IMG/VR virus record: IMGVR_UViG_3300028048_000052
Span: 111,155 to 175,154 of that record
Length of the DNA: 64,000 nucleotides
Reading direction: 5' to 3' (one strand)
Source: a virus
Lineage: Duplodnaviria > Caudoviricetes
Below the pieces are notes generated by a model. That model did not search any database and was not told the DNA's origin. It was given only the letters and a program-made list of their open reading frames with translations. Below are positions 7,854-63,999 of the stretch, piece after piece; positions within the stretch are counted from its first letter, which is position 1, and every line of letters begins with the position of its first letter. The translations under genes were made by a program, and so were the position numbers.

Positions 7854-8825
7854 ATGAAGAAAATGATTAATGCAACACACGTGGAAGGTTTGTTATACGA
7901 CCACGCTTTAGAGGAAAAGGTGTCAGGTGCAAATTCTAAAAATCCCGGAACAAAATTTATCGCAGGAACTGTTGATGTAGCAACAGATAATGACGGTATT
8001 AATATTGTTTCAGTACATTATACCTATGTAACTCCAGTAACAGCAACAGGAAAAGAAAATGCAACCTATACAACTTTGTTAAACATTATTAATGGAACCT
8101 ATAAGACTGTTGTTAGAGACGGTTCTGATAATGCAACAAAGATTAGAATTGATTCTGCTATTGGTCTGAATGAATTTTATTCAGATAGAGATGGCACAGA
8201 AACACTTGTAAGTGTAAAGAGAAATGAGGGTGGATTTGTCCATACTAATGGAAACTTTACAGACGATGAAACATTAAGAAATACATTTGATGTTGATATT
8301 GTTATTACAGGTGTACGTCATGTTGATGGAGATGCTGATAAGGGAACTGATGATAAGAGTATTGTTAAGGGAGCAATTTTTGATTTCAGAAACAGTTTAT
8401 TACCAGTTGAATTTTCAGTAACAAATCCAGCAGCGATGAACTATTTTGAAGGATTAGATGCATCAAATAAAAATCCGATTTTCACAAGAGTAAGAGGTCG
8501 TCAGGTTTCTGAAACTATTACTCGTCAGATTACAGAAGAAGGTGCGTTTGGTGAACCGAGTGTAAGAGAAGTAAAAACCACTAGAAAAGATTTCGTTATT
8601 ACTTGGGCGAAAGCTGAACCATATCTCTTTGATGATGAATCAACTTTAACAGCAGAGGAATTTAAGAAAGCGATCGCCGATAGAGAAATGGCGTTAGCTG
8701 AACTTAAGAGGAGAAACGACGAATACAAAGCAAATAGAAAAGCAGGTAATGGTATGCCATTTGGTGATACAAGTTCTACTACCACCAATGTTGCCGCGCC
8801 AGCAATGGGCTCATTTGATTTTTAG
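7854..8825 (+). CDS. Putative single-stranded DNA-binding protein
   Basis: Beta-rich, flexible tail ending ...FDF, located before the Sak4-like ATPase. Function is inferred from context. Confidence 0.45.
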   Translation: MKKMINATHVEGLLYDHALEEKVSGANSKNPGTKFIAGTVDVATDNDGINIVSVHYTYVTPVTATGKENATYTTLLNIINGTYKTVVRDGSDNATKIRIDSAIGLNEFYSDRDGTETLVSVKRNEGGFVHTNGNFTDDETLRNTFDVDIVITGVRHVDGDADKGTDDKSIVKGAIFDFRNSLLPVEFSVTNPAAMNYFEGLDASNKNPIFTRVRGRQVSETITRQITEEGAFGEPSVREVKTTRKDFVITWAKAEPYLFDDESTLTAEEFKKAIADREMALAELKRRNDEYKANRKAGNGMPFGDTSSTTTNVAAPAMGSFDF

Positions 8826-30742: not shown

Positions 30743-31345
30743 ATGAATATTAATGCAGATGCAATGTTATCATATATTTTGGTTGCTGTTGGGGGATTTT
30801 TAATTAAATATCTTTGAGATAAAATGGTTGAAAATGGCAAAGAAAAATCAGAAAAAGCTGAAGCGTATGATAAAAAAGTTTTAAGAGAGGTTGTAGAAGA
30901 CATTGTAAAAGAGTCTTGTATGCAATTTAAAGGCGGATTAGAAGAATCAATTAATGAATTTAAAGCTCATGCCGAAAATGAATTTAAAAGATATAGCGAA
31001 ATGTATTGGAAAGCTGTTGGTAATTTAGAAGATGTTGAAAAGAACTTCAAACATTTAAGAGAACAAGATTTAGCATTTTATAAATACCAATTAATTAATA
31101 GCTGTAAAAAATATATTTCACAAGGTTTTATTACACAATATCAATTTGATAGATTAAGTGAATTACATAAGATTTATCATGATTTAGGCGGTAATAGCCA
31201 AGGTGATATGTATTATGAAAAAGCAACTCAATTAAAAATTATTAGCGATAATTCTTATAAAGCAATTGATCAAATGGATGATGAATTATATGTTACGGAG
31301 GCCGATATGAAAGACCTGCACGTAAAAAAAGAGGAAGAACAATAA
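30743..31345 (+). CDS. Holin-like/lysis-associated membrane protein (200 aa; TGA at codon 25)
   Basis: GGGGAGG RBS + ATG 30743; N-terminal TM segment ending YL-TGA-DK; C-terminal IYHDLGGNS motif resembling holin-adjacent phage proteins. Confidence 0.55.
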
Positions 31346-31363
31346 AGTTCTTCCTCTTTTTTT
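31325..31363. terminator. Bidirectional terminator at the strand switch
   Basis: A run-GAGGAAGAAC-AATAAA-GTTCTTCCTC-T run. Confidence 0.75.
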
Positions 31364-31409
31364 ATTTATCTGGACCTTCTACATAGGCAGCCAGTTAGCC
31401 TCATGTTTA

Positions 31410-31715
31410 TGGCAGGGGGCGAAGGACTCGAACCCTCATAGCCGAGGTTGGAGCTCGGTTCGCGGTTTTGCGTACCACTGCAATTTTCATTGCCCTTGCG
31501 GTTTGTGGTCTGGACTATATCTTCACCATATATCTCTACTTAGGTGGCTGATTATCTAGTCTCTACGGGCCAAATTACTCTGTTCCCTCGGTGTTACCAG
31601 TTAAGGATTCACCGATATCATCAGCTCCACTATTACTGTTTCCAGTAATAGGCTCCAATTGAGTAAAATTACTCTTTTTAAAGACCGATTCCGTTCCCAA
31701 CGGTGAAAACCCCCT
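31410..31715 (-). tRNA. Intron-containing UGA-decoding tRNA (anticodon UCA, probably Trp); exons 31715-31681 and 31470-31410; 96 nt mature
   Basis: Acceptor AGGGGGU/GCCCCCU, discriminator G, encoded CCA. T arm GAGGG-UUCGAGU-CCUUC. Anticodon arm CGGU-CUU|CAAA-ACCG. Variable-arm stem CCGAG/CUCGG. Confidence 0.85.
31471..31680 (-). mobile_element. 210-nt ORF-less group I intron between anticodon positions 34 and 35
   Basis: Follows U and ends in G; P7 elements GAGACUAG and GAAGAUAUAGUCC; internal guide UUGGAG pairs with the ligated CUU|CAA with U.G at the splice site. Confidence 0.85.
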
Positions 31716-45155: not shown

Positions 45156-48100
45156 TTATTGCCATGCATTGAGTAATTCTCAATAATTACGGTCTATATT
45201 ATCGGTAAAACTTCCTGTTTTTACGCCATTCTTTGTTTTGATATAAATGTAATTCTTTTCTGGTTGTGGAGCAACATAATTTGACTCACCTTGAGTTCCA
45301 GATTCTGCGACTGCGTCTGAATGACATACCCAAATCCATCCAGATTTTACATCAGGAACAGACATTTCATTACTACCTAAACCTGTTGTTAAATTCGTAG
45401 GGATATGGTCTGGATCAGAACGAATAATACCGCAATAGTTATTAATAATACCGCTTTCATTACCACTGCCTTCAATAGTCTGATTATTAATATTATTAAT
45501 CTGCGCTTGAAGTTTATTCAAACCTTGCCCTAAAGTATCTGTCGCCGCGATTGGCGTATTAGATCCTCTATTGCTAGGACTATCTAAATCAGTTAATGGT
45601 CTATTGGCGATATGATCTAATTGCCATTGCAATTTAGCAATTGCTTCGGTAAGATTATCGTTGTCATCAACGTTATCGCCCATCGATTCATTAATGTCAT
45701 TAATATAATAATTATCATAATCATTTAACGTTATGTTGTTAGCACCGGCGTTAATATGAGTAATTAATTTATTAAATGCATCACGCACAGTATCAGCAGA
45801 AGTAATTGAAACATTTCCAGAAGGAGAAGTTAAAGTACCAATTGTTGCACTACCATTTGTTTCTAATAAAATATCAGCAACTTTAACAGTGGTTTCTTTT
45901 TCTCCAATCACGTGTCCTGCGTTATCAATAACAGGGCTATGAAGAACTATCCTATTGCCAGTAGCATCATCTGGGACAAAACCAAATGGATCATGGGCTC
46001 TATCATTATTGGCTTCATCAGCCTCTAATGTATCTTTTAAAGCATCTACGTAACCACTTAATTCATCATTACGATCTGCGTCTTCGCTTAATGGCAAATG
46101 GGTTGAATTTTCTCCATCAAAATCATTAACATTGTCATGCACAATATCTAATATCATTTGACCAGTTTCTTCATCAAAACTAGGAGTAAGACTAACTCAA
46201 GATTCGCCATTATCATTTTCAGAATTTAAAGCGACTGGCCCAAGTTTACCATATTCATTAACTCCATATAATTGGCCCGGAATTAATGGTTGTTCAAATC
46301 CATCAATAATATCGTGCAATTGGTTAAGGCAACCCTGAACGGTATTATTATCACGAGTTCTTGTATTACCAGATTGCAAAACCTCATTTATTCTTAATAA
46401 TAAGCCATGTAAAGTATTAATATTTCTAGCAAAATCATTTAATTCTTTAAAGACTTTTGAATCTTGTTTAATGCCAATCTTTAATTTTGGATTTTCTCCG
46501 CCAAAATATTTTTCGATATCAGAATCTTCTAAAATAATTTGTGTATTTAACTTTTGATATTTTGTAAAATCATCTTCTACTGATTCATCAACATCTATAA
46601 TATAATACTCATTACCAGCGACATATAAATTCATTGGCAATTGCCCAGTAGAGAAATCAGGCCTATCAGCTGGCATATACTTATTACCATCTTTGTAATA
46701 AAGAGTAAATTCTGTATAATATCCATTTTTTCCTGCGGTGATATACTCATTATCTACATCAAAGTTACTCGTTAATCCGAAGCCTACAAAACTTTCATCT
46801 TCAAGTTTTCCTCAATTTGGTTGATCTTTAATTTGCCAATAAGTATATTCTTCACTAACTCCATTGAAATCTAAATCTTCTTCTCTTAAAGAAACTCTAT
46901 TAAATGAAATAATTGGATTATTTTGTTCATCTATAGTACTTAAATTAAATTCTTCACTTACATCTTCACCAGCCTCAATTGCCAATGCCCTTGCTTTTAA
47001 TGGATCGTCTTCAGGGTGCCTAAAGTCAGCATAATAACATCCAGTAGTTGGTAAAGTTACCTTTTTCTTTGTGGCTGTTGCATAATGACTCTCACTTGGA
47101 TCATGATTATAATATAACGGCCAGCCTAATTCTATTTTTCCTTCAGTACCATAATCTTTGTAATAACTTCTATTATTAAATAATATCCTATTTAAATCAA
47201 TATGGCCAAATTCAGAAGTAACGGTTTCTCCTTCTGGGGATAGCTCTGGTGCGTGTTCATAATAATAGTGGACTTGAATTGGCTCGTTTAAATTAATTTC
47301 TGAGCTATTGGTTGCATTTCGCAATGCTTCCTTAAATTCATCAGCACTCTTTATATCACCGTTGCTATATTTTACTCATAGATTATCTGTACCAATTTTA
47401 ACTTCTGATAATTTTATATAGTTATTTCTATTAGGATCTGCGTTTTTATCTGCTTTAAGGACATACCAACGTTCATTGTCTAACATGTATCCACTAACTT
47501 CATGGAAATCTAATAACTCATACCATTTATCTGCTATTTGAGCCCCTTGTTTTCATTGATTTATTAAATATTCTCCATTATGTGCTTCATAAAAATGCTT
47601 TGGTGCACTTGGTTCTTGCGCGTCAGTGTAACCAGTAGGAATTTCTGTTTTTTCTAAATAATAAATTTCATTTTTATTAATTTTACTAGCACTTCCGACG
47701 TATTTTAATGTACTTGGTAATGTGTAGTATTTCCAACCTTCAGAAGCAATACCACTTCCATTAACACGTTTATAAATATTGCCGTTAATTTCATTACTAT
47801 AAACATTGTCTGGCATCTTATTTGCCATAACTTCAAAGTAATTATCATTACCGGTCTCATAATTTTCTTTAAATTGTTCAGCTGTTAAAGTTTCAAGCTC
47901 AGTATAAGGTATTTCTTTAAAGCCAACACTTTTTGAAACATAGTAGTAATGACCTTGCTGAATATTTTTATCTGCTGGTTCGCCGTCTTCATTTAAAGCG
48001 TTATAATCTTTTGTTGCATAATAAATTTGCCAAGTATGCGCTTTTTGAGGATCGGCATAATCATCAGTAGTTGGAATATCCTCGTTTGTAATAATCATAC

Positions 48101-49709
48101 CCATTAAATCATGAGCACTATTAATTGTTCCAACTAAAGAATCGCCCTCTTCTGGAACGTATTCTGTATAGTCATCTTCTCTTGTATAATGTACTAAGTG
48201 CTGTTTTTCATTATGAGCTGTTAAAATATCATTTGCATCTTCCCACGCATGAAGAGTTTTTCTTTTATTGGTTTGCTTATAAAGTCCAGATTTAAATTCT
48301 TCACCTTTATATTCAATATATTTTTCTTCATTTGGGTCAAGTTTTTCATAATAAGATTCATTCGCGTCAAAATCTTCTTCTAAAATCGGCTCATAACCAC
48401 TCACGCCATAAATTATATCCCACATTTCTGCGACAGTATCGCCAAGAGCAGGCAAAATAACGCTTAAACCTTTCATATCATCATAAGGTTTGTTTTCAAA
48501 GTTTGTTGTAGAATCTTCATCTTGATTTGCATATTTTGTGCCAGATTGATAATTGTCTATTTGAATAACGTTTTTGTCTTTGCCAACTCCAGAATAAACA
48601 CTATTATCTCTGCTGAAGCCTATTTTATTAAAATATATAGCTCCATTATAACTCTTTATAGTAGACTCATTTATTTTATGTTGTGTATCTAATTCAGTTC
48701 TTTTTAACTCTAATAAGCCAACATCTGTTTTTCCATCCAAATGAGGAATATCTTCTTTTAATTCATCAACATCTGCAATCATAAAACCCCAAGGAGTTTG
48801 CATATGTAAATTATAATAAACATTTGTACTATCTTTATCAAAATGCAATGTCCTTGGTACATCGCTTGGTGAATCAGAGGTTAATGCAAATGTTGGAACC
48901 ACTGAATTTAATTCAGCGATATTCACATATTTTGCTTTACCGTCATTACCATAAACTTTGCGCCAAACGGTTGAATCATAGCCTCTACCTAAGCCATAAA
49001 CAGCCTTATCAATAGCAAAGTTTGTTGTATAAGCATCTTCCGTTTCTACAACATTATCGCTATTCCAAGGAAGGCCAATTTCTTCGCCCTCTTTCCCATA
49101 TAAGAACCATCTATTTCTTAATGCATCAATATAATGATATGGTTTTGAATAAATATCATTTTCATTAGAAGATGAATAAATATCGCTTTCTTGAACATAA
49201 CAATAAACAGGTATTTCAGTAATTTCTTGGGTAATTTGATCTTTTGTATAAAGAACTATTCCTTCTTCATTTTCTCAATCAATGGTTTTTATTAAGTGAT
49301 CGCCATGCTCATCAGCTTCTTTGGCTCTATAAGCAATAGTAGGGGTCATTTCATAAATAACTTTTGAATAATTACCACTTTCCCAATTAACTTCTTCTTT
49401 TATATCATTAAATTCTTCGCTTAAATATAAATAATAACAAAGATCACTTAAATTATCTCCATCATCTTTCGTTTTATAAGCACTAAGAATTTCTGCTTTT
49501 GCATAGTATTTACCATTTTTATTATAAACAGTTTTAACCGCTTCGACAGGATTTTCATTTAATGGTTGATCATATTCAACTAAAACATATCTACCACCAA
49601 AAACGCTATCAGTATTAGCGTTTTGTTCCATTATAGTTCTATTAGAATAAATTCTATCAAACTTAAAAGAATTACTTGTGGTATTCCTTATATTTCCATA
49701 GAAACCCAT
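45156..49709 (-). CDS. Large virion/tail protein (1517 aa; 6 TGA=Trp)
   Basis: Five track fragments share one frame with no TAA/TAG between them; TGA at 49275, 47553, 47376, 46812, 46197, 45180. Confidence 0.75.
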
Positions 49710-49712
49710 AAA

Positions 49713-50069
49713 TTACTCCTCCTCTCCTTCATACACTATATCAACAATCAAAAATCCATTACCAGCTTCGCCAGCCTCTTCAATTGTTTTCATAGATTTG
49801 GCGTCAAAACGCAAAGCACTAATTGATGCCTTATCTTGTAAATCTAATTCATAAATACCAGTAGCGCCAACAATTATAGGATCAATTCCTCCATTTAAGA
49901 AAAATTTTGTTCCCGGCAAAGCTTGAATACCTAATTGATAAATTGGCGTTTTATCTGCAAATAAACTACCAGTAAAAAAGGATTCAATTGTGGCACCTTC
50001 TGGGAAAACATTAGTGCTATTGGGGTCAACATTATTTTTAACTCATCTATATTGATAAGCCTTTCTCAT
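49713..50069 (-). CDS. Hypothetical virion protein (118 aa; TGA at codon 9)
   Basis: AGGAGG RBS; MRKAYQYR-W-VK...QLGIQALPGTKF. Confidence 0.65.
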
Positions 50070-50083
50070 TCTCCATTTCCTCC

Positions 50084-53000
50084 TTAATATATTATTTCAG
50101 CGCTCTTAACCGCAGAAACGGACATAATTCCATTAAATGTTAATGGAATTGTAATTCTGTTAACTAAATATTCTCCATTTATCTTACTATCTTCATCATA
50201 AACCATTACTTTTGTATTTGGCTGTAAATGATAAATAGGTATTGAATTAATTGAAATTGATTCAATACAATATAAATAAAGATTGATATATTCTTCCATA
50301 ACGTCATACGCGCTCTTGCCTTGCGAACTTATATTAAATACAGACGCTAATTCATCATTGTATTGCAAATAAGTATAGCCAGATTTTCTATCTACAGTTG
50401 AAATATCTGTGGTATATAAAGCCGTAGGCGTTTCTCTAAAGTATATGGCTTTAACCATATTATCATTAACAGATTTTGACCTATCTCCAATAGCAGGGAC
50501 TGAATATTTAACTAAATCTGTGCTTTCATCAGCTTCTAAAAAATCAAATCAGAAATTAAGATTTTCTGGCGCATTTAAAATTTCAACATTTCAACCATCA
50601 TTGGTATCTTGGTCTTCTATTCACGAATCAACCCATTTAAAAGTTTGTCAATCATCGTAACTCATATTTAATCCATAAACAATACCATTTGGATTACTAA
50701 AATATATTCCTTGCTCGCTATCTGGTTTTATCGCATCAGTAGTAAATACCCATCCACCGCTAGTATTTCTCTCTGTTCATACGCCAGAAGGATAAAGAAC
50801 TTCCATTAATTGCGGCGGACAATATAATTGACGCCAAAATCCTTCCATATCAACATAATATTGTTCATATCCTGTTCTACCAGAAGGATAATACCATTGA
50901 TTATTTAAATCAAGCCCATTATTTGTTCTTACTTTAAGATAAAAATCATCATCATGATTATGCTTTCTATAGTCAAGTGCCATTTGGAAAATAATTTCAC
51001 GCCAATCGCATACATATATTGTATTATCTTCACTTATTTTTCCATTTTCGCCCACTTTTGGCATTCTGTCAACAAATCGATATCCTTTTTCTGCAATTAA
51101 CGCATCGATTTCTTCATCGCTTAATTGTTTTTCTACTTCTTCTTCAATGTATTCTATAAAAGTTTCATCGTTTGTTTTAGTAGGGAAATTAGGAGAATAA
51201 AAATAAGCATAAGCTTCTACAACTTTTTTATTCCTATGTATTCTTTCTTCTTCTGGTTTATCCATAATAGAAAATCAATCTTCAAAATCTTCATAAGTAT
51301 GTATAGAACAACCGCTGAAAGGAGCAATATATCATCTAGTAATTCCATCATCATCTTGAATATTTTTATCTTCAGTGCCATTATGTTCAACAGAAACATA
51401 AAAACTTCCATCTTCATATTTATAAGCATTAAATAATCATATATTATTAGTTGATGTAGAATTCCTTATTATTTGGCCATTAAAAAATGTAGAAAAATCC
51501 AAATTCTCAACATAGCCTTTTGGCTGTGTTACATCTCCACTCGGATTTGTAGCATACATCCGCATATGATTTATAGGATCATTGCCGGTTAAATATTTAT
51601 AATAAGTATGTCAATCTCGCAAATCTCACCATCCAGCAGTTCATGAGCCATCTTTATTTTTTGTTGGTTTTTGGAGGCCATCAATCACTTTATGAGTTGG
51701 TTCAAAATTTTCTATATTTCTCTTTATTCTTTTACGAATTTTTTCACGAGCCTCGTCTTTAACCATTTCAACTAATTGATCATAGGTAACATCAACAATA
51801 CCTTCGTCCTTTTTAACTCACCATTGTCCGGTTTTAGTTACCCACTCTTTTCCATCGAATGCTTTGTAATAAGTTGGTTTTTTATCCACAGCATATCTCA
51901 AGTGAACTGGGAGTTCAGACCCGGTGACAGATGCTTTTGTCCCTCATATTGAAAAATCATTTCTTACATTACTTAAAGCTGGGTTATTAGCGTAACTTGT
52001 TACTAAAAAACTATCACCAAAAGTCCATGTAATTGGGGATGAATAAAACGCGCTTTCTACATAAGTTTCATCAATTGTTGTTACATAAGAATTTTGATTC
52101 CCTGTTTTTATATTATTTCAAGTTTTATCAATAAAAGTTGGTTTTCTTTGGAAAATAAATCTTCCATCAATATCGTAAAAATATTCAAAGTTGCCTAACA
52201 TGGCTACTAATTTATCTAACATTGCCGTAATAGGTTCTCCAACAGAAAGAATTAAGTCTCCGGGATATGTAATATCTGTTAAACGGTAACCACATGTTTG
52301 GCCATTTTCAACTTTTACAACAGTATAAATATAATTATAATTTATTATACTTTCTTTGTTTTCATCAATATCTGATAAGAAAAATTTAGTAGCAGTAATT
52401 GAGTGCACTCCACCCAGATCCAATTCTATTCTTGGGTCATAATTTAACACATTGCCATCTTCGTCTTTATAATTAGCAATTTCACTAATTGAAATACCAT
52501 GAGTATTATCAACAGGTTCGCCATCAATTGTTTGAATATTTGCTAAAATATATTGGCCATCTTTTAATTTTGCTGGATAAACTTTCTGCTCTCCATTAAA
52601 AAAACTTTGATAACAATCTTTTGTATTATCTTCTGCATTTAGTCTAAAGAGTAAATACATTGGATCATTGCCGTTGTAATCAAGTAATTCTATTCCATAA
52701 TCATCTAAATCATTAACAACAATATTTTCTCAAGGTTCATCAGCATAAGCATGCACTGCTTCTCTGATAATATTCTTAATAGGAATATAGCTAATTGTGG
52801 TTATACCGTTTTGATAATATTCTTCTTTACCAAAATCAACAGACGCAAATAAAGACCCACTTAATTCACCATTAAGTAAAGTCATTTTGTCTTTACCGGT
52901 TATATTAATTGTATAACTGCTCACAGCCTGAGAAGTCGTAAAAGCAGATATCACATAAGTTCCCATAGGAAACCAAATAATATCTTCATAGCCATACCCA

Positions 53001-53284
53001 ACGGTATTGCGTAATCCTACATATAATTTAAATCTATTTTTTAATCCCCAATAATATTGATTAATATTTAAATCTTTTGCGACAAGACTTAATGTACAGG
53101 TACGACGGACACTAGAGGATCCATCTAAACTAACGGATCCCCCAGTCACCTGTCCTTGTATTTCTTCTATTGGGTCATTTTGCAAAGTTAAAGCAATAAT
53201 CTTTGCAAATACTTCTTTTTCTCTATGACGATATAATTCTTTTAAGAACTCGTCATCTAATAATGGATTTTTATTCAATGCCAC
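50084..53284 (-). CDS. Tail/baseplate protein, DUF5048-like N-terminus (1066 aa; ~15 TGA=Trp)
   Basis: Four fragments in one frame with no TAA/TAG; GGSVSLDGSSSVRRTCTL, EYFYDIDGRFIFQ, NDFSI-W-G, LNF-W-FDFL. Confidence 0.75.
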
Positions 53285-56200
53285 GTTCCTCCTTATATCG
53301 TTCTATTTCTTTGTCTAAAAGATCAAGATATTCTTCTTTTAAAGGATCAATTTGCTTCCTGCAAGCCTCAGAAATATCTAATCTTTGTTCATAATCTTCT
53401 TTTCATTCATCATCATAATAATCATATAACTCTTCTGCGGTATCTTTTCTTGTGTAGAAGAGTCCTGTATAATTATCGATTGCTTCTTGCAATTCTTCAC
53501 GTTTACTTCGAAGATTATTATTTGTATTTTCAACACTATATTCAATTTCTCTTGCTTGATAAGAAAGATTTAATATAACACCATCACCAACATAAATATC
53601 AGTAATTTGTGGTATAAGATCAGTTTTAAATTTACCAGTATTTGCTAAATCAATGTAAGGTTGTAAGATTTCTCCATCTGGTTTATATAACTCACCATTG
53701 TGATAAACTATCCCTTCACTAACTCCGGTATTAATATAAATTCTTGAAGAATATCCATCAACAACATAATAATATCCATCTTTATAAATTAAATAATAGT
53801 CTCCATTTTCAAAAGTATAATATTTATTATATTCAACGTATGGATCAGCGGTATAATATGTCGCATCAACATAATATCCTTCATTTTTATGATATTCAAC
53901 AGGAATTAAAACTCATTGACCATTTTGATAAACACTAACGATATGAGCACCCGCAGGATCTTCTCCAGAAGTATTATAATTAAATTCTTCTTTTCCATAA
54001 TACTCTTCCAAAAGTAAGAAATCTTCCGGAACAAGTTTAATTTGCTTAATTTTTTGGGCAACTGCTTCATCATTTTTATAACGAACATAATTGCTAACTT
54101 GCGCCAATGTTAAATTATATTTATTTAACATTTCTATAACTTGTTTTTTCAATTCTTTTAACTCTCATGGGGATAATGTATCAATATAATTATGAGGAAT
54201 ATCTCCGTCTATACTGCCACCATGGTGGAAGATTGGATGAATTTTATAAATATATAAAGAATTCTCCAATGGACTAAATGTTTCTCCGGTAATATCACCA
54301 TAAGAATGTCCCTTATTTTCACCCGGCATTTTTACCTTATCGAAAGAGAACCAATCATTGAATTCATCTGGAGGAATAGGGCGTTTAAGATCTGGAATTG
54401 CACCATCGTTCCAAGTATAAATATTTTCAACCTGTTTTAATTCAGCTTGAATGCTTAAAACATTAATTAATTCTGTTTTTGTATCGGTAATTTCATCTAA
54501 TACATTGGATGAAATGTCTCCTCCAATAAATTGTTTGCATGGAACATCAATAAGCTTTTGTCCGACAATTAAATCAAAACTATTAGCGTACATATCTGTA
54601 TATTTATAAGTAAATAAGCCATTATAATCTTCAAGAATATAATTAGATGAAGTACTTTCAATGGGTTTTATTTTTACAGAATTAATATTTTCTGGTCTTT
54701 CTAAAATAAGTTGCCCAGTATTTCCAATAATATATGGTTTATCATTAATTAATATCATATCTCCAGAATTCATATCGTCAAAATAAATTGCATAAGCATG
54801 CAATGTATTATTGCTATATGGATCTTTTAATAATTCTATATATCCATCTTCTCCAACGGGATAATCTTTATTTAATCCTGTAATAATTGGGATATAGGTT
54901 TTATCTCCTTCATGAGTTTGATATCCAAGAGGAATAGTTCTATAATATTTTCTTTGCTTCTCTTCATCGCTTAACCCATTATTAATAAAACCAAAATTAA
55001 CTAAATTTTCATAAACACAATCCGCAACTTCGTAAGCCGTACAAGAAAAAGTATGAAGCATACGCCCAAGAGAATCAGTTGGCGTTAAATTTGTATTAAG
55101 TAAACGCACAATATAATTACCTTCAGTTGGAGATCTAAATAATTTTGGTTTACCATTAGTTAGCCATTCCAGCACCTCTAATTTAAATCTGCGCTCAGAC
55201 GCAATATTGTGACTTGTTAAATTAGTGGTTTTTGCGTTAATTGGTAGCTCATCATCAGAATTTGTTTTATTCCTGCTCCGATTAGTAATATCAATAACCC
55301 CAATTTCATCATTAGTTAAAAATAACTCTTGCTCATCCCCCAAATATGAGATAAGCCCAGAAATTGGAAATTCTTTATAATTAACATGCCCATTTCTAAA
55401 TATAAATGGATATTTACTACCAATCGTGTCTGTTTTTGCTTCTGGAATATCATTTTTAAAATTTGATACTTTTGGATTAAATCTAATTTTTAATTGGCGC
55501 TGACCATCAAATAAAAACGCATCTTCAAAATCAGCAAAAACTTCATTTGATAATACTCGGTCAGTATAAATACCAGCTTCATTAAATTGCCTAATAGCAT
55601 ATTGATAAGTTTCACCATGAGTTATAGTGAAATCTCTTCAGAATGTTTTCGTGGCAACTTCATTTTGTAAAATAAATAAATCTATGACTTCCCAATGTCT
55701 TGGGTTTTTCATATTTCTTCTACTAATTTCAAATGCGCCGGTTAATGTTGCATTTTCACCAGCAGAGCCAAGACTCTTTAATTTTAAAAGCATAAAACCG
55801 TTATCATAATCTGGTGTTGCGGTAAACTCCAATTTTAATGTCGTGCCAATACTGTTCTTTTGGAGAATGTTATATTTAGGACTTGAACACTCCATTTTAT
55901 TAGAAGTAATAACTTGATATTGTAAATAATAAGTTGTGTCATCATCTAAATCATCAGTATATTTAAAAATATCATTCGCACTTAATGAATTAACATCATT
56001 TATTGTATTATGCAAGACCCATCCGGTATCATAGAATACTTCACCAGAAGTAGTATACGTAATTATGAAACGATATTGCGCAATTTTTTCCATTGGGTCA
56101 TCTTCATGTTCAAAAACACCTAAATAATATCCGGCAAAAAGATTGCTCTTTTTATCAGAAAGACCATCAATATAAATCTTTGGTCCATTTAATCCATAAT

Positions 56201-56516
56201 ATTTAACTACTCCGACAGTAGAGTAATACCCAACTGTTGAATATTCATCATTGCCAATATAAGCAAGTTGTATTTTATAATATTGGCCCGGAGTTAATTC
56301 AACTTTTTCAATATTAAATTTTGCTTGAGAGGTAGTATAGCTAGTACTCTCTATATTTGCAACAAAAGTATTTGTTTGTATTGTTTTTATTTTTAAAGAA
56401 AAGCCTTTAATATCAGCTTTACTAACTGCCCTGTTCATAGAAAACGGGACAACCAAAGTTGTCCCGTAAAAAGCTGGTATTGTGCCTTCTATGACAGGAG
56501 GATACAATTTTGCCAT
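53271..56516 (-). CDS. Distal-tail/baseplate-like protein (1081 aa; 4 TGA=Trp)
   Basis: Fragments fuse via TGA 55638, 54165, 53913, 53403; WLTNGKPKLFRSPTEGNYIV; stop overlaps the next GTG. Confidence 0.72.
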
Positions 56517-56519
56517 AAT

Positions 56520-56708
56520 TTATTCTCCTTCCACAACCGGTTCTGTATTAGAAGCCATAATAGGTTCTTCTTTTATTTCAACAGTATTAGCAAGTTGCTC
56601 CATGAGCGCTAAGATTTTTGCCATTGTTTTTGTATCTTCGCCTTTGGTAGAAATTGTTAATAAAGCGTTGTAAATATTAATAAATTGTTCTGCCTGTTGT
56701 TTTGTCAT
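56520..56708 (-). CDS. Small hypothetical protein
   Basis: AGGAGG RBS; tight packing with neighbours. Confidence 0.6.
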   Translation of the reverse strand: MTKQQAEQFINIYNALLTISTKGEDTKTMAKILALMEQLANTVEIKEEPIMASNTEPVVEGE

Positions 56709-56742
56709 AGTATGACCTCCTTTTTCTCTATATATTATTATA

Positions 56743-59700
56743 CTAATTTGCGACTGTTAAAGTCAAATAATTTGTTCCAAAACTATTTAAAACACCAACG
56801 TTATAAGTGATATCATTAATGGTAATTTGTGTTAAAACCGCATTTGTTCCATTTAAAGCACTATAATTATTTTCCACTATTGTTTTTACAGCATTTTCAA
56901 AATTTGTAATATCACTAACAGCGTGATTATGTGAATTATTAGCTTTACTACTCAAAGCAGTATAAACACCTCCAGAAGTAATAAGATTAGTGCTATTATT
57001 TATTGGGATGGCATCTGCGCTTTTTCATATCGGTGCAGAATTTTCACCAGATGATGCTAAAAATTGACCCGATGTTCCTGCGCTTAATGCGCTAATTGCA
57101 TTCGTACCATGCCCTATAAGTAAACTATTGGGGCTAAGAGTTGTTGCACCCGTGCCGCCTCTACCAACCGGTAATATCCCGCTAGTGGCATTTAACGATA
57201 TTTCTAAATTACCATTATCAGTTATTTTAATTTCTTTACCTTTACCTAAAAATCCAGTTCCATCGCTAAATAAGCCATAAGTTTCATTATCATTTAAATA
57301 TCCAAGAATTCCACTTCTTTCGGTTGCGTTTTCGCCAGTGCCTTCAGCTGGTAAATCTCCTATAACAATACCGCTAAGTTGCCCAGAATCATTTGCGGTT
57401 GTAATGCTCATAATACTGGCAATAGTTTTATTTTTATTAGTACTTGTTTTAATTGGCTTATCTCCAGAAAGATTGTTAATAGCTGTATTACCATAACTAT
57501 TCAAAATTATTAAGATTGGCTGATACCATACTTCATCATTTTGTGTTGGTATTTTTATATAAAATTTATAATCTACCCCAATAGTAAATGAAGAAGTTGG
57601 AATCAAGTTGCCATTTTCTATTGTAGGAAAAAATTTTTCATTAGTTTGATCAAAAATTTTTCTAGTTATTTCATTTGATGAAATAGCAATATTTTGATTT
57701 TCAATATCTTTTAATGAATAAGCTATATTATAATATTCTGGTTTTACACCATTAGCATCATAAGCAATAGTGTCCGGGCCATCAACATACATAATATTCC
57801 TGTTTGTTCTAACTGGTAAAATATAATATTGCGTAATTGAATTAATACCAGTTTCTCCTTGTTTTGGCGTCGCAACACATTTTATAATGCCACCGATATA
57901 TTGATTTTCATTAATACTGCCTCAATCATTGTCTGATTTAATCGATGCAGATGCCCCATCGCTATCTAGGGATAATTTTTGTCCTTGGAAAAGCCATCTA
58001 TACTCAAAATCAAAATTATTTGTTTTTAATTCATCATTACTATTATAAACCATTGCTGTAAGTTTATATTCCGTTGTGGAATTAAAAGTTCAAGCATTTG
58101 GAGAATTATTTATTGTTTCATCACCATTATCATCAATATATTTTTCAAATGTTGGAATTATTGATAAAGCATAATCTGCCCCATTGGTGCCTTTTACGCC
58201 AAAAAATAATTCTATGGATGCTGTATATATTTGTCCATTTTTATAAATTACCGCTATAATGGTATTATTAGTTAAAGATCTTCTATAAAATTGTTTTATT
58301 TGATAAACCAAAGAAGCCGTTTTTAATCTATTTTGTTCATCAGTCCTATCTTCAACAATAACCCAAAAATTAGGTCTATCATTTAAAAATTGTTTTTCAT
58401 CATTTGTTATTTCATTAATATCGTCATACTCAACAACACTTTCATCACTGGTATTTTCTGGGCGAGCTTCTTGGTCTCTTAATAAAAGTCTTTCTTGCGT
58501 TTTTATATAATATTTTGTAGTTGCTGAATATTCAGCTTCTTCTTTTTTTACTAAATTATATTTTCCGCCACTAAGAACATATAAAACCCTTTTATCTTCT
58601 GAATTATTTTTTCATTGTTGGAATTCAGATTCAGTATATGGAACTAAAACATAATGTCCATCCCCAAATCCAACGCCCTCTGCTGGTTCTTTTATCATTG
58701 TATTTGCTTTTGGAATTAATCAATAAATACGTTCAGCCGCGTCAAAATCATCAGAGCCGGTTATAAACGAAGTAAAAGATGCTTCAATAGTTCTTTTTAT
58801 TAATGCATCACTAGGCTTAATCAATTCACTATTTGCGTTTTCTGTCGCTTTATAAATTGTATATATGCCTTTTTTATCATCAGTGGCTGTTAATTTTAAT
58901 CCTTGAATCAAATCAGCAATTTGGGACTCTTGCGTAACAGAGTTTGTAAAAACTAAAGCTGGTGAAACATAAAACGTTTCTAATCGAAATTTGTTTTGTT
59001 CAAAATTTTTCCAAGGATCTGTTTCATAGCTCGTATACTTTTTATATATATCTTTTTGTGCTAAATATTTTGCAATGTTAACAGAATTACCATCAATTTT
59101 AAGATTATTATTAAAATATTTTTTACTAATTAAAGTAACATAATTTCATAAAATTTCTACTCTTGTTGGTAAATTTGAGTTATAATCCCATTCTTCATCT
59201 CAAAATTCAGTGCCTATTAATTCTTGGAGGTAACCACCTGTGTATTCATCATTTTCATTTTTTACTCCAAAAATATCGTCTGAAGTATAAGTCGCATCTA
59301 CAAATAACTGAATTGCTGCCTTATCATCATTTGTATATTTAAAATTTTCTCCAATAGTAGAAGCTAATGCTTCTAATCTACTTGATACAGTATAAGCGTT
59401 ATCTTTTTTAAAAATGAATGCAACCTTAAATAATTCTTTTGATTTATTATCTAATTGAACCGTTTTTTGGAAATTGTCTATATCATAATATGGTTCATCG
59501 TTATTTCAATCTATTTCATGGTAGAAATCACCCGCTCTTTTATCTGAATAGCCAACGCTTAAATCTTGTTTATAAAATTTTATTTTAGGATATTCTTCAA
59601 GCGGATCAGTAACGTTAAGCCCATTAATTTCTCTATTTAATTCTTTAAAATTGTTAAAATTATTTATATATTTATAAGTGCCATTCTCTCTTCTATAAAC

Positions 59701-60675
59701 TAAACGAGGATGTAAAGTTCTTGTAAAATCGCTTTTATTTGTTGACACTATAAAAGTGGTTGGGGTTGACCATAACATTGCAGTCGTTCCAGAAATTTTA
59801 CTAGATGAGTAACCTAATTTTATGGTTAAATTATTTACAAAAATATTATGCGGTATAACTTTATCATTTAAAGTATATGGAAATTTTGTCGCCCCAGCAT
59901 AAAAATCACAGTTTTGATAAAAATAACAAGATATATCCTTTATATTACCTTGTTCTTCTGGATTAAAAGTAAAAACATAAGATTGGTCTAAAAAAGTTTC
60001 ATAGTTATACGGATTACCAATCATTTCACTACTATCAAAATCAAAACTAATTTCATTTTCCCCTATTTTCCCAGTATCATTAGAAAGCATTTCTTTATCA
60101 GTAGTTATAACAAAATGCAAACCAAAGGAGCCTTTTGTAGGATAATCCCCAATAGAAGAAAAAGTTTTAAAACTTGCCGTAATTGCTATTTTATCGAGCC
60201 CCTCAAAACCACCTCTATCTAAATCTGACTTGATAATTGAAAAGCCGTCATTTAAATATTTCTTTTGAGCGCTCGGGTTTTCATTTGTTTCTGGCTCATT
60301 TGCTGTAAGCCCAAATAAATCTTTTGCTGAATTTTCACAAATATCACCAGTCATATCGACAAAACCAAGTAATGGATTAACCCATATAAAGCTATCTGCA
60401 TCGTATCTTATATTTTTGCCAATAATCATTTTTGTATTTTCATAATCACCATTTGGGATTAAAACCCATACACTTTCACCAACAACATAATCTGTTTTTT
60501 CTGTAAAAGCTGTAAACTTTAATCCATTATTTGATACAATATATTTTCCTTTTGCTGCGTCGGTATCATCATCTATATTACAAAGAATCGTAATATCTTT
60601 ATTTAATGCTTGAAGGCGCTTGTCAATAATCGTATCAATAGCACCAAATAATTCTTCACTATATTTATTTGTCAT
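56743..60675 (-). CDS. Large tail protein with fibre-like C-terminus (1310 aa; 8 TGA=Trp)
   Basis: Five fragments in one frame with no TAA/TAG; AAGGAG RBS before ATG 60675; GILPVGRGGTGAT and HNHAVSDITNF fibre motifs. Confidence 0.72.
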
Positions 60676-60760
60676 CGCGCAGATCTCCTTTTTCACATAA
60701 ATTCTATTCTAATTTATTATCAAAAACAAGTGGGCAAAATTACCCAAACACACCCAATAT

Positions 60761-60793
60761 AAAAAAAGAAGGGTAGAAAATTCTACCCTTCTA
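60761..60793 (-). terminator. Intrinsic terminator after the tape measure gene
   Basis: AGAAGGGTAGAA-AA-TTCTACCCTTCT with an A run on +. Confidence 0.7.
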
Positions 60794-60795
60794 AT

Positions 60796-63700
60796 TTATT
60801 GTTTTCGTCCTGCGTATTGTCCCGCAAGTCCTATTAAATTATTAAATGCTTCTTCAATTTCGCTATGGTTAGTAGCGTTAGGGAATTCAGCATGAATGGT
60901 AACGTTTTGATCTAAATAATTACCGCCAGCATTAACTCCGCCCGCAATAAGATTACCTAAACCATTACCTGAAATATTAGCATTTGCCCCAATCATTTGA
61001 ACAAGGTCTCTTACAAACCCAACAGCTTGGAGCATATTAGCAGTATCTTGTTTATTAAGGACAAGCTCCTTTTCATGAAGAATTGCCTGTCTGCCTTCTG
61101 GACCCCAAGAGCCAGTATAACCGCCGGAGTCAAATTTAACGTCTATTGGCTTTGACGGCCCATTTGATTGAACAGTCTTTTTGTAGCCACAAGCTTCACA
61201 TCGATAATATACATAAGTACCATGAATTCCAGTTTGCACTCAAGCATGCCGTTCATTAGTACTTTTAGTTTGTGTGTTCCCTTTATTACTTACTCGCTTT
61301 CAATAAGTTGTATGCGTATCAGCTCCGCTTGCAACATAACCAGTTCTTTGCCAACTTCCTCATGTTTCTGGTGTAATTGGATTTCCGCTATCACCACCGG
61401 GACTACCACTATCTCCTCCCGGATTGCCTCCACCACCTCCACTGGGGCTACTGCCGCTACCTCCCGGATTAGAAGGAGTATTATCTTTAACTTTGGTATT
61501 ATTTAATTTACCATAAGCATCAATAATATCTAAAATTGTTTTTTGCCATTTTTTATTTTTATCAATAATTCCATCGATAAGTTTTGAAAGACCATCTTCG
61601 CCAGTAAACCAAGTTTTAAGATTATTAAGAATTTCAGTAAATTCTTCATCCATTTTATCTGATAAATCCTCGGCTTCTTCTTCTGCATCTTCCATTGCTT
61701 CGGTAATTTGACCAATTTCATTAGATACCTGATCAGCAAAATCTTCTATCGATTGTTTTGCTTCATTAAGAATTCTTTCTCTATTTTCATACCATTCCTC
61801 GTATGAAACAGTGAGTTCTTGGTCAGCGTTTAAAGCATTTTCTCTAAAGGCATCTAACATTTCATTTAACGAATTGAAATTACCCTCAATCGCTAAAGTT
61901 GTTTCACCAAAAGCATCAATTAAATTATGATTTTGAACGCCATATTCATCGGTAATCCAAGCGCCATCTTCAATTGCTTGATTAAGAAATTGCCCATAGA
62001 TTTCTTGTAATTCTTGTTGTCTTCCAAGCATACGCCGAGCTCTTTCTTCATCACTAATATCTAATCCAGATAAATAATTAGAATAATCACGCAAATTTTG
62101 CAAATATGAAGCTTGCATTTTTGCTACTTGATCTTGATTCCATTTTTCAAGCTCATATAATTTATCTTCATAATTTTGTTGAGCTTTATCCATCTCTTCT
62201 GGATTTTGAGTATAAGTATAGCTCCAGTTACCTTCATTATCACGGGTCATACGAACCATGTTTTTAGCATCTCTAGCTTCTTCCATAGCAATTCTTGCCT
62301 GTTCAAGTTCAAGACGTCTTTGTAAAAGTCCAACATCATACTCATTTAATTTAGTGCCTTCTCGTTGTGCTTTTAAGATATCTTCTTGTAATTTCTTTAA
62401 TCTTTCTTTACCTTTAATATTATTTGTATTATTTATAGAGTTGTTTACATCACGAGTTAATTTACTTAAATCATAAATTTGTTGATATGTAGGTAAATAT
62501 TGCTCATCTATTTTATTCTGCATATCAAAATATTCTTGTAAATTTTCTAAAGTTCCAGCAGTGCCAGAAACAGCTTGGCTGAAAGCATCCGCGATCATCT
62601 GCATTGAATCTTTAAAGTTATCCGCGGCGACTTTAAGAGCATTTTCTTCTCTTTCTAAATATTCATTTTGAGCTTCCAGAAGTGCATCGTAGTAATTATC
62701 CACTTGTTGTTTCATTAATTTTATATCTTCTTCGCTTGCATCTGGATTTAATAACATTGAGTTATATTCTGCGTTAAGTCGCTCATATTCCGCGGCGATT
62801 GTGTCGTATTGGCGCCTGCTGATGATTAGTTGCTTTTCAGCGGCGTCAAGAGATACTTTATTCATTTGCTTTAATAAAGCATCGCTAATGCCTAAAACAT
62901 CTTTACCAACAATATCAATAACATTGCGGTAGTGTTTCATTACATCGCCAAGTTCTTCAATAATATCTTTTTGGCGATCTATTTTATCATTAAACTCTTC
63001 TAAACTCTTTGTTAATTCTTCATAAGCTTCTTTGCGTAATTCTTCTAAAGTTTCTTCTAATTTTAATAACTCTGAACGGTAATCACGCAATTGCTGTTGT
63101 TCTTTATCTGTTAAATGGCCAATTTTCTCAAGCATTTCTTCAAGAGAAGTTTCACCATTTAAATAACTTTCTACTAAATCAGCTGTTAATTCCGGATGAT
63201 TTTCATTAGAAAGCATTTCAATAATACCATTTTGAATATTTGAAATTTGTTCAAGGGTATTACCAGCCTTTTGGCCCAATAAAGCAACGGTTTCACCGAT
63301 ATCATACATACTATCATCTAAACGCTTAATAAGATGATCAAGATATTCAGTGCCATCTTCAATTAATTCATTAAGATATTTTACTTTATAGGTGACTATT
63401 TCAAGACGCTCGTCATAGATTTTATTCAAAGCGTCCATACGACCTTTTTCAGCTTCATCAACTTTATCTAATGCAGTTTCATACTTTTTAATGGCATCTT
63501 CAAATTTCTTCCATCAATCATCATCAACAGATCCGCTATTATATTTGTCAACCCAAGAGTCATACCAAGATTCAAAATTCTTAATGGTACCATCATCATT
63601 AAATTTTGCGCCATAACCGAGCAATACTTTTTGGTCTTGAGCTAAATAGTTATTTGCTTCTTTCGCTAATCTTTCGTAATATTGAGCTTGTTGTTTAAGG

Positions 63701-63999
63701 AGTTCAATTTCCTCCTTCATGTAGTCAATACGACTTTGACCAAAAGCACGATCTTTTGATTTATTAAGTAAATCTAATGCAGCTTTGTTTTGCTTTAATT
63801 GAGCAGAAACCTCATGGTAACGTTGCGTATCTTTATCTTTGGTTTTCTTTTCAGAACCATGACCACCGCCACCGCCCTTATTGCCTTTACTGCCACCTTT
63901 ACTTGCACCATTAACGGCACCGCCTTTAATAAAATTAAAATTACCACCAGAAGTTTTTGTGGCAGAATCCATTTCAATAGCATAATGAGTTACCTTTTT
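60796..63999 (-). CDS. Tape measure protein, C-terminal part (5' partial; 4 TGA=Trp)
   Basis: Long coiled-coil; C-terminal FDSGGYTG.WG...AILHEKELVLN; fragments fuse via TGA 63514, 61360, 61300, 61240. Confidence 0.78.

Follow-up and report, generated by a model that had tools for sequence, protein, structure and literature searches.

A phage opal-suppressor tRNA-Trp with a putative second anticodon arm that carries the tryptophan anticodon CCA

We have analysed a tRNA(UCA) gene that lies on the minus strand, at positions 31715-31410, of a 64,000-nucleotide (nt) stretch of phage DNA, hereafter referred to as the window, which forms the final 64 kb of the 175,154-bp IMG/VR phage record IMGVR_UViG_3300028048_000052 (CheckV completeness 100%). 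The gene is split by a putative group I intron and, as we read it, specifies an opal-suppressor tRNA-Trp that belongs to a family of tRNAs with two anticodon arms, one bearing the stop-reading anticodon UCA and the other the Trp anticodon CCA. The CCA arm would aid the tryptophanyl-tRNA synthetase (TrpRS) of the host, and we put the probability that this accounts for the molecule as a whole at about 0.6. Within the family, the window tRNA is best placed in a lineage that has diverged from the rest, its marks being a Sec-like D arm, a 4-base-pair (bp) anticodon stem and an optional group I intron.

Structure of the spliced tRNA(UCA)

Joining exon 1 (31715-31681, 35 nt) to exon 2 (31470-31410, 61 nt) yields a tRNA of 96 nt, the gene for which has the following parts:

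31681..31715, minus strand: exon 1, comprising the acceptor 5' strand (31715-31709), a 5-nt linker, the D hairpin (31703-31691) and, in its 3' part, the 5' strand of the decoding anticodon stem with C32, U33 and U34; colinear with the intron-less alleles L125/L149, L244 and L234
31471..31680, minus strand: group I intron of 210 nt between U34 and C35, preceded by U, with a terminal G and no open reading frame (ORF)
31410..31470, minus strand: exon 2, comprising C35, A36 and the remainder of the decoding arm (31470-31462), the second arm, the T arm (31437-31421), the acceptor 3' strand (31420-31414), G73 (31413) and CCA (31412-31410); supported by covariation
31442..31458, minus strand: second arm at the position of the variable arm, with a 5-bp stem (CCGAG/CUCGG) and the loop CUCCAAC (31453-31447)

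The acceptor stem has 7 bp (A1-U72, G2-C71, G3-C70, G4-C69, G5-C68, G6-C67 and U7.G66) and is followed by G73 and an encoded CCA, and the T arm has 5 bp (GAGGG/UUCGAGU/CCUUC, loop UUCGAGU). In the decoding arm, UCGGU-CUUCAAA-ACCGC, U27.C43 is unpaired, which leaves a 4-bp stem beneath the anticodon UCA. Five unpaired nucleotides precede the D hairpin, CCG(UU)-GGG-(AA)CGG, and the extra arm, CCGAG-CUCCAAC-CUCGG, is flanked by linkers of 3 nt and 4 nt. A first-pass annotation of the window, made from the letters of the DNA, had already described a spliced 96-nt tRNA(UCA) with a 7/5 acceptor/T fold, A1-U72, G2-C71, G3-C70 and G73, all of which can be read directly from the sequence. The exon junction is fixed, because intron-less alleles match the joined exons, namely L149/L125, which sits at the syntenic position in a related phage, where the proteins of the neighbouring genes are 80-88% identical, and L244 and L234, which are further close relatives that also lack the intron. 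ARAGORN did not call a tRNA at the locus in the window, in the whole region or in the spliced sequence, and at gathering score Rfam returned no family there.

Comparison with relatives (see below) demonstrated that the helices are beyond chance. In a MAFFT alignment of 44 intron-less family members 97.4% of cells pair, and 15 of the 24 pairs vary on both sides, including all five pairs of the extra arm. None of 500 shuffles reached this level of pairing, and slid registers came nowhere near it. Compensatory changes are also apparent when the window is compared with its close relatives, in which G6-C67 is replaced by A6-U67 and, in L244, CCGAG/CUCGG by CCUGG/CCAGG. An additional helix, UUC(9-11)/GAA(45-47), that closes the D hairpin and the UCA arm was considered and discarded, since by eye the relatives need other registers or cannot pair.

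The extra arm as a second anticodon arm

The loop of the extra arm, CUCCAAC, recurs letter for letter as the anticodon loop of the tRNA-Trp(CCA) that the phage itself encodes at genome positions 68094-68168, and from the second arm to the 3' end the two RNAs are colinear over 49 nt, including the 4-nt linker that stands where a class I tRNA-Trp has its variable loop. When the UCA arm and its linker were deleted in silico, ARAGORN called both the window RNA and a typical family member tRNA-Trp(CCA). This result and the spacing of loop 2 suggest that the body is that of a tRNA-Trp with two tandem anticodon arms. The first-pass annotation had noted a long variable arm (CCGAG/CUCGG) of the kind read by SerRS; its stem is real and covaries, but rather than a Ser- or Sec-type variable arm we take it to be a second anticodon arm, retained or duplicated, with the Trp anticodon CCA.

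Relatives were retrieved from IMG/VR viral and metagenome contigs using degenerate structural patterns in which the loop and T-loop motifs were kept. A tighter, CCA-anchored pattern found at least 119 stretches in metagenomes. On parsing, at least 62 distinct sequences proved to share the layout, and the scans taken together yielded more than 80 distinct relatives. Among the 62 relatives listed, G73 and U72 are present without exception (A1-U72 in 54, G1.U72 in 8), the inner pairs 2-5 of the second arm form in 60-62 sequences with three to four pair types each, and in 59 of them loop 2 and the T stem are 9 nt apart. Since the first scans demanded CUCCAA, a scan without the CCA requirement was run, in which GTCTTCAAAAC was followed by 26-34 free bases and then the T loop. 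Of 50 distinct sequences with a 7/5 frame, U72 and G73, 49 carried U-CCA-A/U in the free region, in loops such as GUCCAAA, CUCCAAA and UUCCAAC, and two further sequences with C72 had GUCCAUA. The U-CCA-A loop was found in none of the 27 true selC sequences (8/5 frame) of the same scan. For this comparison selC and Trp-type sequences were sorted by an N72/N73 rule, as criteria based on the D-arm hairpin or an 8-bp acceptor misclassified many of them.

The window tRNA has all of the features that define the family, namely the 7/5 Trp-type frame, the UCA arm, the second 5-bp arm and a loop of the form N-U-CCA-A-N about 4 nt before the T stem. Exact searches of viral contigs with the T arm/3' end and with exon 1 found no match, blastn against GenBank phages found none, and no related loci were recovered through the neighbouring 633-aa protein. 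Through DnaE we found three relatives, two of which are 67% identical, recode TAG instead of TGA and are without a two-armed tRNA(UCA).

UGA is read as tryptophan

Applying genetic code 4, we derived 190 non-overlapping gene models, which together contain 208 in-frame TGA codons (in 74 models) and 501 TGG codons, and compared them by tblastn with the two TAG-recoding relatives. Trp stood opposite TGA at 53 of 110 aligned sites and opposite TGG at 180 of 338, while Ser faced TGA at 4 of the 110 sites and Cys once; the preference of the first-pass annotation for Trp, drawn from protein motifs, is thereby supported. The total length of ORFs of at least 100 aa rose from 57.5 to 77.3 kb once TGA was read as sense. 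ORF coverage at short loci around family members favoured code 4 in 38 of 73 and code 15 in nine, but the control loci were inflated too, and we give this weakly informative comparison no weight as evidence.

In the complete phage genome we found no match to the TrpRS/TyrRS family, RF-1/RF-2, SelA or the SelB winged helix; trpS, release factors and the dedicated synthetase that had been considered earlier are thus not among its genes. The tRNA(UCA) is the sole cognate UGA decoder in this genome with about 200 in-frame TGAs. The alignment of TGA with Trp and the lack of SelA and SelB lead us to conclude from sequence comparison that UGA means Trp in the phage and would be decoded through ordinary elongation, and since the phage lacks a TrpRS, a host enzyme would have to charge the tRNA. 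In agreement with this, 13 phage tRNA(UCA) species assayed in E. coli extract all inserted Trp, although that study makes no comment on their structure (10.1101/2025.10.30.685624), and Borges et al., who could detect suppressors in 35% of code-4 phages and suspected non-canonical structures, proposed charging by the host TrpRS (10.1101/2021.08.26.457843).

Bacterial TrpRS enzymes recognize G73, C34C35A36 and the 1-72 pair, and in B. subtilis also the pairs 2-71 to 4-69 (PMC9976931). The acceptor part of this identity set is complete in the spliced tRNA (G73, A1-U72, G2-C71, G3-C70, G4-C69 and G5-C68). C34C35A36, on the other hand, is absent from the decoding arm, which has U34 C35 A36, and the full CUCCAAC loop is found in the second arm. 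The view of the molecule as a non-canonical opal decoder with a Trp-type acceptor end holds up, and its 12-bp 7/5 helix is like that of ordinary elongator tRNAs.

A possible cis-acting handle for the host TrpRS

Considering these features, we propose that the primary transcript would run off the end of the minus-strand gene block and that the intron would self-splice between nucleotides 34 and 35, which would generate the UCA anticodon. Host TrpRS would then charge a tRNA that has kept the bacterial Trp acceptor set but lost C34 from its decoding anticodon. The variable arm, with U33-C34C35A36-A37 above a 5-bp stem, has the make-up of the anticodon stem-loop of a tRNA-Trp; a 4-nt class I linker comes after it, and the arm would present the missing anticodon determinant to the enzyme in cis. 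While TrpRS is bound, the CCA arm may take the position of the UCA arm beneath the D stem, an exchange for which the spacing would leave room, as each arm stands at the canonical distance from one of its neighbours, whereas on the ribosome the UCA arm would stack and the CCA arm would project like a class II variable arm. The normal 7/5 acceptor/T helix leads us to expect the EF-Tu route, by which the 96-nt product would reach the ribosome and read UGA as sense at the roughly 200 in-frame TGAs. The long Sec-like D stem with its tiny loop and the open 27.43 position are, more speculatively, likely adaptations of the core that hold two arms. We rate the idea that the CCA arm is a cis handle for the host TrpRS as somewhat better than an even bet.

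A parallel design in amber suppressors supports this idea. In Gln-type long-arm tRNA(CUA) the loop of the mini-hairpin copies the Gln anticodon loop (CUCUGAA, UUCUGAG or CUUUGAA), with a full 7-nt match to U-CUG/UUG-A in 20 of 29 sequences and YUGA in nine more, while among the seven class II-type CUA suppressors in the same scan a full match occurred once and YUGA twice. The Gln-type loci are L288-L339, one of which (L009:10388-10475, = L320) lies in the TAG-recoding relative G003. The triplet in the spare arm goes with the amino acid that the stop codon has come to mean, which points to the synthetase and not to a nuclease or to pure structure. Furthermore, of the 17 records whose G73 tRNA(UCA) has a single arm, 3 contain a TrpRS-family gene, as against none of 33 two-armed records, 13 of which are at least 90% complete (Fisher p ~0.035), so that within this small sample phages with their own TrpRS gene are only those whose tRNA(UCA) has no second arm.

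These three loci (L360, L365 and L342, in G007, G008 and G009) each combine a single-arm tRNA(UCA) that has an unusual D arm, UCGGUAAGUGGUUAUGCC, with a phage gene of the TrpRS family (E ~1e-64), and are likely self-contained synthetase/tRNA pairs.

In a broader form, the proposal would be that a cognate-anticodon loop in an extra arm is a general cis identity device that works with unaltered host synthetases, pairing UCA with CCA for Trp and CUA with CUG or UUG for Gln. Such a molecule might alternate between two stacked forms: the synthetase would meet the arm with the cognate anticodon beneath the D stem, and the ribosome would meet the stop-reading arm in the same place. The window tRNA would then be a diverged lineage in which the D arm was rebuilt in a Sec-like form, position 27.43 was opened and an optional self-splicing intron was gained. 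To this generalization we give even odds.

Several observations weigh against the handle. Three records carry the whole TrpRS contrast, and two of these have the same tRNA. A single-arm Trp-type tRNA(UCA) occurs without a phage TrpRS in 14 of the 17 records, many of them fragments, so that the second arm is not indispensable. A variable-arm loop is far from the place where TrpRS holds the anticodon of a normal L-shaped tRNA, and a handle at this position would require that the arms stack differently or that the complex is bent. As the CUUCAAAAC and GGUUCGA motifs were kept constant in the scans, these sampled only part of the diversity. Lastly, thermodynamic folding alone does not recover the cloverleaf: the folding energy of the five-helix fold is -31.4 kcal/mol as compared to a computed minimum of -32.4 kcal/mol, and the pairing probability of the second arm is 0.04. 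With the five-helix fold lying 1 kcal/mol above the minimum, the support for it is comparative.

Other accounts of the CCA arm

The RNA could be a Trp-inserting UGA decoder whose CCA arm has another purpose, be it a UGG-reading head, a site at which a modification enzyme or a phage factor docks, a decoy for anticodon nucleases of the host, or a partner for the D loop in which UUGG pairs with CCAA and shapes the core. Each of the two arms is a full anticodon arm, with 5 bp, a 7-nt loop, U33 and A37, and is followed by 3-5 nt, which means that either can be drawn as 'the' anticodon arm, and on inspection the D loop UUGGGAA is complementary to CCAA in loop 2. However, the phage already possesses a normal tRNA-Trp(CCA), and the Gln suppressors share the design with a triplet that follows the assigned amino acid; moreover, the ribosomal A site is not known to accommodate a tRNA with a hairpin insertion at position 26. 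We consider such another purpose unlikely.

We find it more doubtful still that the second arm is the leftover of a tandem duplication of the anticodon arm in a tRNA-Trp gene, with a helix that is needed and a loop sequence that has no role. Arms and 3' linkers are indeed alike in many members (xxGGU-loop-ACCxx, then GGUA or GGGU), and the loop is degraded in a few (GUCCAUA), L247 having no CCA. Yet the stem of the second arm has turned over often, with four pair types at two positions, while U-CCA-A/U was kept in 49 of 50 sequences; the CCA loop persists across at least three D-arm types, class II-like bodies included, and the same pattern arose in the Gln suppressors.

The D arm and the resemblance to tRNA-Sec

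In most family members the D arm is that of an ordinary tRNA-Trp (UA-GUGU-AAUGGUA-GCAC-A), and the Rfam tRNA model scores these members at 56-62 bits. The window tRNA (WIN) belongs to a smaller lineage together with L244, L234, L125, L278, L215, L250, L251/L284, L200 and L207, in which the D region consists of two bases, three more that are unpaired, a covarying 3-bp stem and the loop UUNGGAA. The stem core appears as CCG/CGG, CAG/CUG, CCC/GGG, CUA/UAG, CCA/UGG and CAU/AUG. The 5-bp D arm CCGUU/AACGG of the first-pass annotation is therefore borne out in its 3-bp core, while its two outer U-A pairs are invariant, a property that places them beyond a test by covariation. These pairs may extend the D stem to 5 bp, or to 6 bp where 12-26 pairs, as by eye it does in five of nine lineage members; in the window this position is A.A, and the D loop so closed has 3 nt. 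The U27.C43 mismatch with its 4-bp anticodon stem, likewise noted before, is present and is kept in the four closest relatives (U.C, U.C, C.U and C.A) but is not family-wide, as elsewhere the pair forms, often as G.U. With a cognate UCA anticodon, a 4-bp anticodon stem is not required.

The phage's own tRNA-Trp(CCA) (G000:C1:68094-68168) also has an unpaired C27.U43 and hence a 4-bp anticodon stem. This tRNA might read UGA in error. Class II-like D arms (GGC-AGAGUGGUUAAAU-GC) are found in the two-armed tRNA(UCA) of L199, L209, L261, L274, L201 and L108, and the CCA arm has thus been combined with at least three different tRNA bodies.

The D arm of this lineage contributes to a likeness to tRNA-Sec. 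For the intron-less L244, L125 and L234 the best-scoring Rfam model is tRNA-Sec (RF01852), at 40.1-41.8 bits with a gathering score of 47, and the match works through the long D stem with its tiny loop and through the long arm; in the alignment of L244, seven of the model's nine acceptor pairs form. In the window, where the intron splits the gene, the score is 19.3 bits. ARAGORN labelled one intron-less family member that we tested 'tRNA-SeC'. In the window tRNA, U8 cannot pair with C65, which excludes a 13-bp (8/5) acceptor/T helix. The Sec-like side of the body described in the first-pass annotation thus has some foundation in how the intron-less relatives score, but falls short in bits and in acceptor pairs.

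Is the body nonetheless derived from selC or tRNA-Ser and serylated, with subsequent conversion to Sec, insertion of Ser or a dedicated synthetase? UCA, G73, G2-C71, the long extra arm, the long D stem with a 3-nt loop and the RF01852 scores of 40-42 bits all speak for such an origin, as does the fact that SerRS reads the size of the arm and not its sequence (PMC9976931). On the other side stand the 7/5 instead of 8/5 fold and the sub-threshold score; the 208 TGAs in 74 gene models, which face Trp and not Ser or Cys; a phage genome without SelA, SelB or any aminoacyl-tRNA synthetase (aaRS) of the TrpRS/TyrRS family; and the CCA loop, seen in 0 of 27 true selC, with linkers of 3 nt and 4 nt that are not class II-like. 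Since most relatives, moreover, carry a plain tRNA-Trp D arm and the linker is the 4-nt one of class I, descent from selC or tRNA-Ser, which the first-pass annotation had thought possible, is very improbable, and the same holds for an ordinary selC that depends on SelB.

A putative group I intron in the anticodon loop

Rfam model RF00028 matched the intron over its full length with 28.1 bits (E 2.8e-5 in a 501-nt search; gathering score 50). Homologous introns of 185-633 nt occupy the same 34/35 site in other family members; about two thirds of the at least 62 relatives are intron-less and the remainder have the intron at 34/35. We infer that this group I intron self-splices and thereby creates the UCA anticodon. 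The tRNA-Leu(UAA) gene of the same phage (G000:C1:64519-64811; L002:1361-1653, outside the window) is likewise split by a group I intron at 34/35, about 70 nt of which are 75% identical to the tRNA(UCA) intron, and is mislabelled by ARAGORN as tRNA-Lys(ttt) with an intron.

Longer introns of 590-633 nt are found at the same site in L020, L036, L065, L079, L093, L094, L141 and others. In L020 at least, an open frame with an HNH-like Cys motif runs into the intron core, which suggests a homing endonuclease.

That the gene is inactive, being disrupted by the intron or decaying, and that UGA is read otherwise, for instance by the phage tRNA-Trp(CCA) with its open 27.43, is hardly credible: ARAGORN and Rfam do not call the gene, the intron scores below the Rfam gathering score, the tRNA-Trp(CCA) has C27.U43 and a shortened anticodon stem is reported to favour UGA reading in trypanosomatids, but the helices of tRNA(UCA) are all intact and maintained by compensatory changes relative to close relatives, CCA is encoded, no other cognate decoder serves the approximately 200 TGAs, and homologous introns sit at the same site elsewhere.

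Genomic setting

The window is made up of two converging gene blocks, and the tRNA(UCA) gene sits on the minus strand where they meet. The plus-strand block encodes replication proteins (a DnaE-type polymerase, a DnaB-like helicase, RecJ and NrdD) and mostly uses the standard code. Two further features of the window concern the gene:

45156..63972, minus strand: late genes (tail, tape-measure) with 4-15 in-frame TGA each; these supply codons for tRNA(UCA) to read, and their TGA aligns with Trp in relatives
31325..31366, both strands: GC-poor perfect hairpin with flanking A/T runs, directly downstream of tRNA(UCA) and between the convergent blocks

The hairpin surfaced as spurious matches to hairpin families on both strands and is likely a bidirectional terminator; the strand switch is visible in GC skew and in the ORF map.

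The phage also encodes a transfer-messenger RNA (tmRNA; G000:C1:64817-65162, L002:1659-2004; Rfam RF00023, 81.6 bits) immediately after its tRNA cluster. Matches to tmRNA adjoin tRNA arrays in the contigs L064 and L062 as well, both of which bear the two-armed family. In L062, a viral contig rich in tRNA genes, positions 8205-8376 match part of OLE RNA (RF01071; 78.7 bits over model positions 437-594).

Implications and comparison with known systems

Borges et al. left open how phages that recode TGA or TAG have their suppressors charged in hosts with the standard code. If our interpretation is correct, a lost identity element that is carried in a spare arm would be a simple and testable answer to this question. 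It would also add a new tRNA architecture, with two anticodon arms within one cloverleaf, and offer a natural design for engineered suppressor tRNAs that remain good substrates of synthetases that read the anticodon. Its unusual shape, together with the intron in those genes that have one, would help to explain why suppressors have been found in about a third of recoded phages, because standard finders miss the gene. For annotation it follows that two-armed tRNA(UCA) genes are readily mislabelled as selC. In the literature searched, which most subscription journals lay outside, we found no description of a tRNA with two anticodon arms.

The tRNA-Trp(UCA) of Mycoplasma, Spiroplasma and mitochondria (code 4) share with the phage tRNA the Trp identity and the reading of UGA through normal elongation. 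They are class I tRNAs with a variable loop of 4-5 nt and are charged by their own, co-evolved TrpRS, whereas the phage tRNA would depend on a host TrpRS adapted to CCA and has retained a CCA loop in its extra arm. In trypanosomatids, Kachale et al. reportedly found in 2023 that a tRNA-Trp(CCA) with a 4-bp anticodon stem reads UGA by mispairing. In both systems a Trp tRNA with a link to UGA decoding has an anticodon stem that is open at its top, but the phage anticodon is the cognate UCA, and the mismatch is limited to four close relatives and the phage tRNA-Trp(CCA). The group I intron of cyanobacterial and plastid tRNA-Leu(UAA) also lies between nucleotides 34 and 35 of the anticodon loop and is self-splicing; in the phage, by contrast, the tRNA that hosts the intron is a suppressor, and its presence varies among close alleles.

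Close counterparts in biology are the gut and rumen phages with TGA recoded to Trp (10.1101/2021.08.26.457843; PMC7886860), which similarly encode their own UCA tRNA, concentrate TGA in late or structural genes, infect hosts with the standard code, insert Trp and in most lineages rely on the host TrpRS. Those papers list the suppressor tRNAs but do not describe a second anticodon arm; here two arms have been resolved, together with an intron and an odd D arm that conceal the gene from tRNA finders.

The phage tRNA resembles tRNA-Sec (selC, RF01852) in its UCA anticodon and G73, in the length of its extra arm, and in a D stem that is long and capped by a very small loop. It differs in its 7/5 instead of 8/5 helix, in its sub-threshold RF01852 score and in an extra arm that copies an anticodon arm with a 7-nt loop, a CCA loop never being found in selC in the same scan; furthermore, the phage TGAs number in the hundreds and align with Trp, and the phage has neither SelA nor SelB. 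Allo-tRNAs and selC*-tRNA-Cys, which came from metagenomic searches for selC and some of which have stop-codon anticodons, are likewise non-canonical and have long variable arms (Mukai et al. 2017, PMC5389517; PMC7609411). Allo-tRNAs, however, have 8/4 or 9/3 acceptor/T helices and Ser identity, as opposed to the 7/5 helix, Trp acceptor set and CCA loop of the phage tRNA, and a review of non-canonical tRNAs lists no form with two anticodon arms (PMC7609411).

Synthetases are known to bind mimics of the anticodon loop outside tRNA, as in the E. coli thrS operator and the mRNA of yeast AspRS (PMC9976931). Like the CCA arm, these mimics are hairpins that copy the cognate anticodon loop, and they are recognized under identity rules; but they reside in mRNA and regulate translation, whereas the CCA arm lies inside the tRNA itself and would serve its charging.

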